Shown: in pieces, positions 56,197 to 60,082 of the stretch
Position numbering within the stretch: the stretch's first letter is position 1
Layout of the letters: the number at the start of each line of letters is the position of its first letter
Assembly (NCBI GenBank): GCA_044226015.1
Contig: JBGAHS010000002.1
Location: 657,571 to 721,570, forward strand
Source: Candidatus Obscuribacteraceae bacterium
Lineage (GTDB): Bacteria; Cyanobacteriota; Vampirovibrionia; Obscuribacterales; Obscuribacteraceae
DNA: 64,000 bases
Direction: 5' to 3'
Notes under the pieces: model-generated
Seen by the model: the letters and a program-made list of their open reading frames with translations, nothing else
Database searches by the model: none
Told to the model about the DNA's origin: nothing
Translations under genes and position numbers: made by a program

Positions 56197-57411
56197 CTAG
56201 GACTTACTTGGAATTTTGAAACAGAATCGCGCTCCTTTGCCGTGTTCTGATTCCACCCAGATTTCACCGCTATGCTGGACAACGATTGCTTTGCATATCG
56301 CCAGTCCCAATCCACTGCCTGGGTAAGTTTGCGTTGAGTGCAGTCGTTTGAACATCTCAAATATTTGACGTTGATACTGCCTTTCTATACCAATTCCGTT
56401 ATCTTGCACTGCAAAAATATAGCCTGAATCATACTTTTCGCAAGAGACATGGATTACCGGAGCCCGGTCAGCACTCTGAAATTTTAGAGCGTTGCCTATT
56501 AAATTTTGGAACAGCTGAGTAAGCTGAATTTTGTTTGCAATTAAGCGAGGCAATTCGTCGTGCGTGACTGTGGCTCCGGTCTCCGTGATCTTCACTTGCA
56601 GGTTGGCACAGGCATCCTCGAGGGCTTTCTCCACCTCCACATTCTCAAACTTCCTGGTGCTGTACGACACCGTCGCGTGCTCAAGAATGCCTTTAACCAA
56701 CCGCTCCATGCGTTTCGTGCCATCAACTATGTATTCAAGAAATTCATTTCCGCTTGCATCAAGCTTGTCTTTATACCTCGACTCTAACAATCCGACGTAG
56801 CCTTGAATAGCTCGAAGTGGCTCTTGCAAATCGTGCGATGCTACTCGCGCAAATTGCTGCAACATAGCGTTCGACCTGCCTAACTCATCTACCGTTCTTC
56901 GAAGCTTCTCCGCTGTGATTTTGTTTTTCGCAATTTCCTCCGACAATTGCTTGTTCGATGCAGCCAACTCAGAGGTGCGCAATGCGACGGTATCCTCGAG
57001 TTCCACAGCGCTTCTTCTTATGTGCGCGGTGCTGCGATTAGTCAACAAAATCATGAGAAGCATTATCGAAAACGGCAACGCATGACTAAAATCAAATTGG
57101 AAGATGGGCTGCGTAAAGAAATAGTCAAATAGAACGAGACTAAGAATACTTGCCCATAGTGCTGGTCCAAGGGTCGATCGGTATGCCAGCAGATATGTGG
57201 TGGCGAAGTACAGCATAATCACATCAATTAGACTGAATCGATAGCCGCCCTGAAAACACAGGTAGGTCACACTCGAGATTGCAACTGTAGCAATCAGATA
57301 TTGCATCGTCAATGATTCTAAATGCGGGGGATTTAAGACCCTATCTAGAAAGTTGTCTATGCACATCCTTGGGTCGTTGCCACATTTTTGGTTTTCAACG
57401 AGCGTGGTCAT
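56197..57411 (-). CDS. Sensor histidine kinase (DUF4118-like TM region)
   Basis: ASHDLQEPLR H-box, NLIGNALKF, DNGIG, GSGLGLAI; start uncertain. Confidence 0.92.
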   Translation of the reverse strand: MTTLVENQKCGNDPRMCIDNFLDRVLNPPHLESLTMQYLIATVAISSVTYLCFQGGYRFSLIDVIMLYFATTYLLAYRSTLGPALWASILSLVLFDYFFTQPIFQFDFSHALPFSIMLLMILLTNRSTAHIRRSAVELEDTVALRTSELAASNKQLSEEIAKNKITAEKLRRTVDELGRSNAMLQQFARVASHDLQEPLRAIQGYVGLLESRYKDKLDASGNEFLEYIVDGTKRMERLVKGILEHATVSYSTRKFENVEVEKALEDACANLQVKITETGATVTHDELPRLIANKIQLTQLFQNLIGNALKFQSADRAPVIHVSCEKYDSGYIFAVQDNGIGIERQYQRQIFEMFKRLHSTQTYPGSGLGLAICKAIVVQHSGEIWVESEHGKGARFCFKIPSKS

Positions 57412-57635
57412 TTGTGCGTTTCCTCTTCCAATGATTCGATAATATCGCTTTGTTGTGGGGGTCTTGTGAGAACGAAGTGATGATTTCGTGAGTAAATTGT
57501 GAGGAACTCGTGAGGAATGCGCCCTGAGCAAGTTCTCCAAGACGCGCCAGAGTCCGCAGCAGAAGAGCGTTTCAAGAACCATGCCATTTCATGCCTGAAG
57601 ACACAAGTGTAACTTTGCTCGCAAAAAATAATTCT

Positions 57636-57722
57636 GCTCCGCTGCAGCATCAGATCCATTTCTATGCAAAATCAGAATTATTCCGCTGCAACATCAGATC
57701 AATTGCGAAGGAAAATCAGATC
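57636..57722. repeat. ~43-bp degenerate direct repeat
   Basis: tccgctgca(g/a)catcagatc..aaaatcaga twice. Confidence 0.7.
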
Positions 57723-57884
57723 GCAGAACGAGCAATTGGCTTATAAGCAGCCTGGAAGCCTGCGTTCCCAGGCGATGTTCCTCTTCCTATGCATGACCAA
57801 ACAAACTTGCTATGCTTGATCATATAATTTCGATCTTGACCGGATCACTTGCTATGCTAATAAGGAATGTAGGAGAAATTTCCA

Positions 57885-58241
57885 GTGAACACATTTACTG
57901 AAACAGTTATCACTTCCTTATCCGCAACTAGCACCCTGGACGCCGCATTTCGCAAACTGAAAGAATGGAAATTTCCACTTGCAAAAATGGAGCCCATCGC
58001 GCAGGACGAATTTAGTCACGACATAGTGATACCATTTCGAGATAACAAACAGCATTTAGTTATCAGCGCGACATGACTGGGAGTAATAACGGCGGTCGCC
58101 GTCTGGCAGCATAAACCCAGTCCTAACGAACTCTTAAGCCATCGACTGAGTAATGGATGGCAAGCGCAGAGCTCTGAGCTTGTGGATGGTCCAAAGATTC
58201 TCGGCCATGCGAGTTGCCTCGGCTCCAATCTCGAGAGCTAA
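57885..58241 (+). CDS. Candidate 118-aa selenoprotein (in-frame TGA at codon 64, 58074-58076)
   Basis: AGGAG RBS and GTG start; frame stays open past TGA for 54 codons (ISAT*LGVITAVAVWQH...GHASC) to TAA 58239-58241, abutting the convergent kinase gene; SECIS-like hairpin follows. Confidence 0.7.
58077..58109 (+). promoter_or_regulatory. Putative bacterial SECIS element
   Basis: acggc-GGTC-gccgt at 58089-58102; loop starts 17 nt after UGA. Confidence 0.6.
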
Positions 58242-60082
58242 TGAGATCTCCTCTTCTCAATTTTTTCCATCATCGCTTCTTCTGATATCAGAGTATCAAT
58301 CCCAGTGCTAACACCGACCTCATCGTCAGCTCTTTCCTGCAGCAGACCAGCATCTTTATCATCCCCAAGTGAACGCAGAACAGAGACACAAGAGCGCATC
58401 TCTTGAGTGTGTCTTGCTGACCTCATGTATGGCATAGACAGCCACTGCCGCGCTGCCTTCTTGGCATACTCCAAGGCCTTCTCATTCATTTTATTCATAG
58501 CGCAGACTTGAGCGCGTCCAAGAAAGATGAGGTTTTCGCATTCTGCTTTATCTACCTTATCTCGTGCTTGCACTTGCGCACCCTCATTCAACATTTGTTC
58601 GGCTAGCTGAGCCTCACCAGTAACAATTCTGCAGTTAGCAGCATCGGCAAAGTATCTGACACTATCTACTTCTTCTTCACTCGCTGCTCTGGCAAGTCTT
58701 GCAGCAATCAAGTACAAATTTGCAGTAATCTTGTTCGGAAACAGCCTCTTCGGCTGCTCATATGCCATAGTACGCAAGGCGACTTCCAGCCCGAAAGAAT
58801 CTTTCAATCTTGCATTTACCGCCAACTCTGCGATCTTTCCCGAAGACAAATACAGCTTATTCATGGTTTCCGAATCTTTTGGCGGCGAATTGTGCAAACA
58901 GGTTAGGAGGCTTCTGATTGCGGAAGCCAATTCGTCGCCCGCAGCTACAGAATTTTTTTGCTCAAGAAACTTCTCACATGATTTTATACTCGATTGCATG
59001 CGAGTATAGATGTAATTTGCACGCGCTCTGCGGGCATCAAGTGCAAGTTTCGGTTTCAACTGGCTATTTAGTGAATCATTCTTAAGAGAATTACTTGTAT
59101 TGGCGAGCAGAAGCAGACCAATTCCCAAAACCGCAGAGATGGAGACTGCTGCAAGAACAAGAAACCTACCGCCTCCTTTCTTACTTTTTCGCTGCTCGAT
59201 GTTGATTGCTACTGTATCATCACCAAGTTCATTCAACAGCAAATCAATCGACTCTGCAAACTCAGCCATAGATTGAAATCGTCTCTCAGCTTGCTTTGCA
59301 GTTGCACGCTGCAATAGCTCATTTAGAAACCTATTTTGATTTTTGCCCAAGCCTGTTTTCAATTCAGGCAGAGTCTCGTTGATATGCTTATAAATGATGC
59401 CAACCGGAGTGTCCGCAACAAAAGGCACCTCACCAGTTATTATCTCGAACAAACAAATTCCCAGGGAATAAATATCAGCGCGGTGATCAACACGCTGCCC
59501 GGTGCATTGCTCAGGGCTCATATAGTTCACACTACCAACCAGAAACCCTGTCTTGGTCAACTTTATTTCACGCTCTTCTTGAAGTTTCGCAAGTCCAAAA
59601 TCGAGAATTTTGATGGTATCAGGCTCAGGCTCATCAACAAGAATAAAATTCTCCGGTTTTAAGTCACGATGAATAACACCTTCATGGTGCGCAAACTCCA
59701 TTGCATTCGCTAAATCTCTTATGATTTTGAGAGAACGAACATAGTTTAATCGCCTTTCAACAATCAGACGTCGAGCACTAACTCCTGAAATGTATTCCAT
59801 CACCAGATATGGTGCAAAAGATGAACTCACGCCTGCGTGGTAGATGCTTACGATGTTCAAGTGTTTAAGCTTGCCCAGGCTCAGGGCCTCACGAATGACC
59901 CGTTCTTTAAATACTTCGTCCGATTCCTCCACAACTTCAAAGATTTTGATAGCAACTAAACGGTCGGCATCTAGCTGTCGCGCTTTAAAAACTGATCCGA
60001 AGGCTCCCGTTCCCAATAGCTCAAGTAGCTCGTACCGATCGTCGAACGTCTTGCCTACCATGCTTTTGGGCGATAATTGCAT
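58238..60082 (-). CDS. Ser/Thr protein kinase with TM and helical/TPR-like external domain
   Basis: GTGAFG, HRDLKPEN, DFG, YMSPEQ. Confidence 0.93.
   Translation of the reverse strand: MQLSPKSMVGKTFDDRYELLELLGTGAFGSVFKARQLDADRLVAIKIFEVVEESDEVFKERVIREALSLGKLKHLNIVSIYHAGVSSSFAPYLVMEYISGVSARRLIVERRLNYVRSLKIIRDLANAMEFAHHEGVIHRDLKPENFILVDEPEPDTIKILDFGLAKLQEEREIKLTKTGFLVGSVNYMSPEQCTGQRVDHRADIYSLGICLFEIITGEVPFVADTPVGIIYKHINETLPELKTGLGKNQNRFLNELLQRATAKQAERRFQSMAEFAESIDLLLNELGDDTVAINIEQRKSKKGGGRFLVLAAVSISAVLGIGLLLLANTSNSLKNDSLNSQLKPKLALDARRARANYIYTRMQSSIKSCEKFLEQKNSVAAGDELASAIRSLLTCLHNSPPKDSETMNKLYLSSGKIAELAVNARLKDSFGLEVALRTMAYEQPKRLFPNKITANLYLIAARLARAASEEEVDSVRYFADAANCRIVTGEAQLAEQMLNEGAQVQARDKVDKAECENLIFLGRAQVCAMNKMNEKALEYAKKAARQWLSMPYMRSARHTQEMRSCVSVLRSLGDDKDAGLLQERADDEVGVSTGIDTLISEEAMMEKIEKRRSH

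Follow-up and report, generated by a model that had tools for sequence, protein, structure and literature searches.

A predicted selenocysteine codon and its hairpin in a small gene of an Obscuribacteraceae bacterium and of relatives in other phyla

The gene and its hairpin

The window analysed here is a stretch of 64,000 nucleotides from contig JBGAHS010000002.1 of a Candidatus Obscuribacteraceae bacterium. It contains a small forward-strand gene that opens with a GTG codon at 57885, runs for 63 residues to an in-frame TGA (58074–58076) and then continues in the same frame for 54 sense codons, up to a TAA at 58239–58241. A sequence-only reading of the window had proposed that this TGA is decoded as selenocysteine (Sec). 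Re-reading 57885–58241 bore out its description of the frame, as well as its remark that the extended gene reaches the convergent kinase gene, the last bases of which are overlapped by the TAA. The features referred to below are listed here by coordinates, strand and description.

56197–57582, reverse strand: histidine kinase gene, divergent neighbour outside the system; no conserved neighbourhood
57871–57875, forward strand: ribosome-binding site AGGAG, 9 nt 5′ of the GTG start
57885–58241, forward strand: full gene, 118 aa, residue 64 being the predicted Sec; one alpha/beta domain in the predicted structure
58002–58022, forward strand: motif Q40-D-E-F-S-H-D46, in the beta1–beta2 turn of the model
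58074–58076, forward strand: in-frame TGA, codon 64, predicted Sec; motif T-U-[LV]-G, in the beta3–beta4 turn of the model
58089–58102, forward strand: candidate SECIS upper stem-loop ACGGC-GGUC-GCCGU, 12 nt past the TGA, with a stem of 5 bp (6 bp in most relatives)
58215–58217, forward strand: Cys111, within the motif G-[HY]-A-[AS]-C where the last helix begins; may serve as the resolving Cys or as a second ligand
58238–60082, reverse strand: Ser/Thr kinase gene, convergent neighbour outside the system; shares 4 nt with the stop of the gene and is not a conserved neighbour

A close relative (P0037) has a Met start at the same residue as the GTG start, and past the TGA a single in-frame start occurs, at 58182. 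Neither a sigma-70 promoter nor a terminator was matched at the locus. Because contigs from three of four sequencing runs (X1, X2 and X7) show no differing letter over the TGA, the sequencing error that the sequence-only reading had considered can be set aside; X1 and X2 may be the assembly's own source, and X6 holds no piece of the host organism across the TGA. The 300-nt gap 5′ of the gene contains two pairs of direct repeats, one at 57806–57816 and 57848–57858 (11 nt, 42 apart) and one at 57639–57656 and 57683–57700 (18 nt with one mismatch, 44 apart), which are possibly regulator sites between the gene and the divergent histidine kinase. Furthermore, 24–30 nt within 57745–57774 have similar copies on contigs C6, C9 and C11 of the host genome (best E 0.003), possibly marking a small repeated intergenic element.

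The GC-rich hairpin noticed from the letters, starting 12 nt after the UGA, is indeed found at 58089–58102, and its GGUC loop (58094–58097) lies 17 nt past the UGA. The bacterial SECIS model, as given in PMC13188914, describes a loop of 3–9 nt, a stem of 4–16 bp, a G in the first two loop positions and a spacing of 16–37 nt; the host element falls inside it, with a 4-nt loop that opens with G, a 5-bp stem and a spacing of 17 nt. Its folding energy is −7.4 kcal/mol for the 21-nt hairpin, −8.1 for nt 7–36 and −17.2 for 61 nt, with a model limit of −7.5. Taken alone, the host hairpin stays within chance relative to shuffles (z −0.2 to −1.5). Such hairpins follow TGA triplets in the host genome at 5.4 per 10,000, a frequency like that after TGC, TGT, TGG, TAA and TAG (4.4–6.2 per 10,000). 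The argument for a real hairpin comes from its conservation across homologues, and not from its own folding score.

The sequence-only reading had called the element fdhF-like, a description that stands for the GU in the loop and fails on two details. With E. coli fdhF the locus shares an in-frame UGA, a coding-region hairpin just 3′ of it, a small loop with GU, and the presence of SelA, SelB, SelC and SelD. However, the loop GU of the host lies at +22/+23, one base nearer the UGA than G23/U24 of fdhF, and the bulged U17 of the fdhF upper stem (both positions as given in PMC8659212) has no counterpart in the host's gene family, where the upper stem is unbroken in fold and alignment. The E. coli protein is unrelated to the host protein.

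Homologues, covariation and the Sec machinery

Homologues were gathered from several samples. In a first sample of relatives, 5 of 60 matched, each with one TGA in the same column, and a wider search returned 21 genome loci titled Obscuribacterales, Planctomycetota, Anaerolineae, Acidobacteriota and Polyangia. Within the host's taxonomic family, the gene is present in 32 of 104 genomes (TGA shown in 31, the 32nd match being partial). A Myxococcota-centred sample gave 28 matches among 301 (16 of them strong, all with TGA), and an Acidobacteriota-centred sample gave 14 among 251 (11 TGA, 3 Cys). In metagenomes, 570 of the first 600 candidates were relatives; the best 80 of these were kept, with a picking pattern that covered the hairpin's amino acids. 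No homologue was found in 300 other genomes from the host's phylum, in 7 genomes of its genus, among 26 candidates from viral contigs or among 16 candidates from a word-index protein search with the full protein, and no longer fusion form was seen among 8000 scored (weak evidence).

Pooling resulted in 137 distinct homologous genes from Cyanobacteriota (Obscuribacteraceae), Myxococcota, Acidobacteriota, Planctomycetota, Chloroflexota and metagenomes. At the column of interest, 133 have TGA and four have a Cys codon (TGC or TGT), and TAA or TAG never occurs; a partial sequence with both TGA and TAG (L185) was excluded from the counts. At least 44 sense codons follow the TGA in 132 of the 133 TGA genes. 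The homologues align on both sides of the TGA, with TGA or Cys at the column, which is the collinearity that the sequence-only reading had named as support for readthrough. Damaged copies have a frameshift (L028) or an extra stop (L033/L152 and L159).

Public annotation tends to break these genes at the TGA. When 1.84 billion representatives were searched with a profile, 210 matched; among the 150 matches listed, five long repeat proteins (summed repeat matches) were dropped and 145 were read. Of these, 38 end one residue before the TGA column, 76 begin after it and 4 are other fragments. The 27 full-length proteins among the matches listed have Cys (13), Trp (4), Ser (4), Arg (2) or, in four others, a different residue at the column. 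RefSeq record WP_149115225.1 from Limnoglobus roseus is a 75-aa fragment that ends at the TGA and is named hypothetical protein. Since the family is common yet split or truncated in annotation, RefSeq included, one HMM would correct many records.

In a 68-row tree, which has few columns and many open forks and whose groupings were taken from the drawn tree only, Cys orthologues stand at several places among the Sec rows, often on long branches, and 12 Obscuribacteraceae rows, including the host gene, form one supported group. The simplest reading would be that the Sec family is old, has gone back to Cys more than once and has been lost in patches. Gene neighbours are variable: among 109 loci, no cluster is common to more than 7, the largest lying entirely within one genus, and a Pfam scan of 118 of the 199 adjacent frames (the same-strand ones) found no recurring function. 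On a dicodon model of the host genome, the downstream half of the gene scores below background (−3.0). In a first coding-score scan and in a scan for Cys/TGA paralogues within the genome, antisense frames swamped the results.

The main hairpin, 12 nt downstream, is found in 127 of the 133 TGA genes and covaries, so the conserved hairpin that had been proposed as a check is in place. Its mean energy over TGA genes is −11.7 kcal/mol. All five core pairs are formed in 118 of 123 TGA genes, versus none of 11 genes from the Cys-only sister family described below; the loop in those 123 is GGUC in 112 and AGUU in 9. Across 43 distinct hairpins, two-sided changes occur at all six pairs, and the compensatory changes fall at synonymous sites. 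The stem encodes TAVAV in 105 genes, and in every one of them both wobble–wobble position pairs are Watson–Crick; the third-position use of the individual genes would predict 10.6. The covariation exceeds that of 500 out of 500 shuffles and of all slid controls, tests that are inflated by related sequences. G22 and U23 of the loop are invariant in all 43 distinct hairpins; they double as positions 1 and 2 of a conserved Val codon.

In the other six TGA genes (L029, L031, L095, L169, L198 and L203), residue 72 is Ser instead of Ala and the stem is shifted: it has 5–6 pairs and a CGUGU loop that lies 23 nt past the UGA. This shifted hairpin is complete in none of the 127 main-hairpin genes, and the six genes sit on several tree branches. 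The alignment thereby suggests that the SECIS register has switched through one Ala72Ser change in several lineages. The four Cys orthologues retain one near-intact hairpin and three weakened ones (−5.8, −2.4 and −1.9 kcal/mol).

The Sec machinery that the sequence-only reading had said to look for is all present in the host: the 8.19-Mb genome contains selA, selB, tRNA-Sec (selC) and selD over the cut-offs, selD being the Cys form. Among gene-bearing genomes tested, selA was found in 62 of 62. Within the host's taxonomic family, selA is present in 32 of 32 gene-bearing genomes versus 83 of 104 overall (nominal P 1.5e-4, a value overstated by kinship and incomplete genomes, just as the co-occurrence counts overstate independence). 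In other phyla it accompanies the gene in 5 of 5 (one partial) and 25 of 25 genomes. All three genomes with Cys orthologues have selA, as do 3 of 11 with the sister family. As comparison among the homologues shows, UGA 64 and the hairpin are under joint selection and travel with selA.

Two further genes of the host have a TGA at a telling position. An MsrA gene (Pfam PMSR, E 1e-47; contig C8, 621180, reverse strand; locus L206, 156–620) has the TGA at its catalytic Cys (G-U-F-W-G), followed by a less clear hairpin, and likely encodes a Sec-MsrA. A thioredoxin domain (contig C8, 209217, forward strand; locus L207) has a W-U-G-P-C motif behind a long low-complexity N-terminal part. Here, the TGA is followed by a hairpin of 7–8 pairs with GGUC at +19, and the gene likely encodes a Sec-thioredoxin. 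The four molybdopterin oxidoreductases of the host genome contain no TGA in the matched stretch.

Predicted fold, conserved residues and the sister family

AlphaFold2 (45 sequences) models the product as one compact domain across the TGA (pLDDT 94.1, pTM 0.85). Along the chain, two helices precede a four-stranded meander, which is followed by a third helix, a short hairpin and a final helix; neither a signal peptide nor a membrane helix was seen in the 118-aa product. The model puts Sec64 in the beta3–beta4 turn and Q40-D41-E42-F43 in the beta1–beta2 turn; from the meander topology, the two turns would share one edge of the sheet. In TGA genes, D41 and E42 are present in 123 of 123, D46 in 122 and H45 in 100; H45 is replaced by Leu in 16 and by Leu or Ile in 21 of the 123. 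V71, P78, L84, W92 and G102 are also invariant in the family alignment.

Cys111 occurs in 122 of the 132 TGA genes with a long enough frame, and its retention makes the partnership with Sec64 that the sequence-only reading had suggested plausible. It is missing in 10, including a Myxococcota clade of five; among the matches listed in the profile search, 5 of 13 full-length Cys-form proteins have it and 8 lack it. A clade in the Myxococcota-centred sample (L171, L173–L177 and L179) has U-N-A after Sec, and most of its members have no C-terminal Cys. This U-N-A resembles the C-N-G of the sister family.

The protein had not been recognised as a known selenoprotein family, and the database searches agree: no Pfam or NCBIfam model matched any of 45 family members at E<0.01, and PHROGs and PADLOC matched none of the 45. 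PDB sequences gave nothing below E 0.02, Foldseek found no PDB match at E≤0.001 for the predicted model, and the ESM Atlas, queried with a Cys orthologue, gave no usable match. Thioredoxin-type motifs (UxxC, CxxU, UxxT, UxxS) are absent, T-U-L-G-V having no Cys within 4 residues, and the protein matches no thioredoxin-family model in Pfam. Structural comparison with VIA-align reached best Z values of 6.4 for the gene model and 4.8 for the sister-family model, which does not establish a new fold. The 6.4 is to an OsmE/BLIP-like alpha-alpha-beta-meander (PDB 4dm5; rmsd 3.0 over 80 residues of model positions 1–90, 11% identity) and is below the tool's chance range of 7–8; the sister model scores 4.2 against OsmE/BLIP-like domains. 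Those domains are exported lipoproteins, unlike the host protein with its lack of a signal peptide, and the arrangement is a common one that speaks for neither kinship nor function.

The family is also absent from the 119 families in Table 1 of PMC13188914 and from the nine deep-Sep families of PMC12013277, and literature searches did not bring it up, although a listing that is unpublished or in a supplement is conceivable. The families of Haft and Tolstoy 2025 appear in the PMC13188914 table with NCBIfam numbers, and the NCBIfam library was scanned. The catalogued families share with this one a single Sec, Cys-containing homologues and a SECIS-like hairpin. Nearest by motif in that table are TsoY (NF047643, UxxV), DG (NF049953, GUxG) and DF (NF049942). 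However, these differ in length, in motif (here T-U-x-G plus QDEFxHD) and in predicted fold, and their models gave no match to the locus at E≤1 with stops read through.

Weak matches led to a sister family (L180–L191 except L185, and P0165–P0284) with the motifs QGEFHHD, TNCNGG and WFDPC. It comprises 2425 clusters from Myxococcota and others, and all displayed names are 'hypothetical protein'. Homology to the Sec family extends over residues 7–88 (hhalign 97.5%, E 6e-12), with Cys66 aligned to Sec64, and the order of secondary structure elements is the same. E42, H45, D46 and the Sec/Cys column are common to both families. In contrast to the Sec family, the sister family always has Cys at the column (120 of 120), has the hairpin in none of 11 genes, has a longer C-terminus and resides mostly in selA-less genomes. 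A later Cys at the helix start is likewise present in 120 of 120 members, and hhalign does not align this Cys116 with Cys111. The sister family is highly conserved and has many invariant His, Cys, Trp and Arg residues; the invariant positions include QGEFHHD, TNCNGG, another two Cys, and H35, H42, H43, C90, H111 and C116. It matches no Pfam or NCBIfam model and no clear fold. An SMI1/KNR4 identity, indicated by ESM Atlas clusters at 0.91–0.92, was rejected: only 139–152 features were shared and Pfam gave no support.

Probable recoding and possible functions

The same column and the same hairpin recur in more than 100 related genes from five phyla, which makes UGA 64 very likely a Sec codon. 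On this comparative evidence, we are close to certain that the codon is recoded by the SelB route to give a 118-aa product, as the sequence-only reading had proposed for residue 64: the column (133 TGA and four Cys codons among 137 genes), the covarying hairpin and the Sec machinery of the host all agree with it. That the gene in addition represents an uncatalogued and widespread selenoprotein family is highly probable. The recoding mechanism itself is the known one.

Two readings would do without Sec. The TGA might be a true stop separating two small genes (63 and ~50 aa) or marking a pseudogene lineage, as suggested by public annotation that calls the halves separately, by the few damaged copies and by the normal use of TGA as a stop in the host genome, where it ends 600 of 2281 long frames. 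However, no in-frame start follows the TGA before 58182, the Cys orthologues are single frames, and TAA or TAG occupies the column in none of 137 genes. With the hairpin covarying, selA co-occurring and the TGA lying inside one predicted beta-sheet, we regard a true stop as highly improbable. Alternatively, a changed code or leaky readthrough could insert Trp, Gly or Cys, in line with the four database proteins that have Trp at the column, although these are probably gene calls made with table 4. The same 600 TGA-terminated frames speak against such a change, as do the TGC and TGT codons of the sense orthologues at the DNA level and the fact that the only TCA-anticodon tRNA found in the host genome is tRNA-Sec; this reading is scarcely credible.

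With Sec64 accepted, the question becomes what the residue does. SelB–Sec-tRNA very probably binds the GU loop and decodes UGA 64 as Sec; in the scheme that we favour tentatively for the function, Sec64 on the beta3–beta4 turn would act as a reactive nucleophile that attacks a small substrate. The acidic D41-E42-x-x-H45-D46 turn could position this substrate or a metal. Cys111 would then resolve the oxidised Sec into a selenenyl-sulfide, to be re-reduced by a thioredoxin-type donor. The protein would in this case be a stand-alone cytoplasmic selenol/thiol redox enzyme built from Sec64, Cys111 and the acidic turn, a reading to which we give a little less than even weight. It is favoured by the presence of Cys111 in 122 of 132 genes and of two Cys in all 120 sister-family members, by the thiol-type oxidoreductase activity of most selenoproteins (according to PMC13188914), and by the likely Sec-thioredoxin and Sec-MsrA of the host. 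It is weakened by the lack of CxxU or UxxC, of a thioredoxin fold and of a conserved neighbour, by the gaps in Cys111 and by the Leu that replaces H45 in 16 of 123 genes.

Sec64, Cys111 and the D/E/H/D turn could instead bind a soft metal (Hg, Cu, Zn or As), making the protein a metal or metalloid binder or an organometal lyase, as thought for the MerB-like SaoL and further selenoproteins linked to metals. Typical ligands are indeed found among the conserved residues (D41, E42, D46, H45, U64 and C111), to which the sister family adds its invariant H35, H42, H43, C90, H111 and C116, and approximately 70% of predicted Sec ligand contacts involve metals (PMC13188914). No metal-resistance or transporter gene recurs alongside, the NCBIfam models of the SaoL/MbdU type are unmatched and no metal-protein fold stands out; we consider metal binding possible, if on the unlikely side. 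It is more improbable still that the protein is a hydrolase or transferase without redox chemistry, in which His45 and an acid would activate Sec64 as the nucleophile of a Sec-His-Asp/Glu triad. E42, H45, D46 and the Sec/Cys column, being common to both families, would fit such a triad. However, Leu or Ile replaces H45 in 21 of 123 genes, the second conserved Cys would be left unexplained, and the protein, very small as it is, matches no hydrolase fold.

For the Sec family as a whole, a broader and more speculative picture can be drawn. The family may be Sec-first, its fold and active site differing from those of every known selenoenzyme: Sec would sit on a beta-turn next to an acidic D-E-x-x-H-D turn, with a distal Cys, and the chemistry would be other than thioredoxin-type exchange. 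It would be distributed over soil and sludge bacteria of at least five phyla and show a SECIS register switch. It would be among the few selenoproteins found in a non-photosynthetic sister family of cyanobacteria, where 80% of genomes keep selA. It would add one family to the ~119 catalogued, outside the thioredoxin-like and metal-enzyme folds that dominate them. The cultured host Limnoglobus roseus and the natural Cys orthologues make its function directly testable, and the paired SECIS registers provide a natural test of SelB requirements.

That Obscuribacteraceae use Sec (selA in 83 of 104 genomes) and that the host genome has no Sec formate dehydrogenase is relevant to the question of what maintains the Sec trait in aerobic lineages. 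Among high-quality genomes of this family, selA is present in 33 of 38, and 51 of the 83 selA genomes are without the gene described here. The host selD (contig C9, locus L019) is directly followed by a gene with a CPxP motif, which is presumably SirA/YedF-like. Elsewhere in the host genome (contig C10, 356333–358584), 18 tRNA genes are arrayed in 2.3 kb, an arrangement that we take to be typical of a mobile element or a prophage-borne tRNA cluster.
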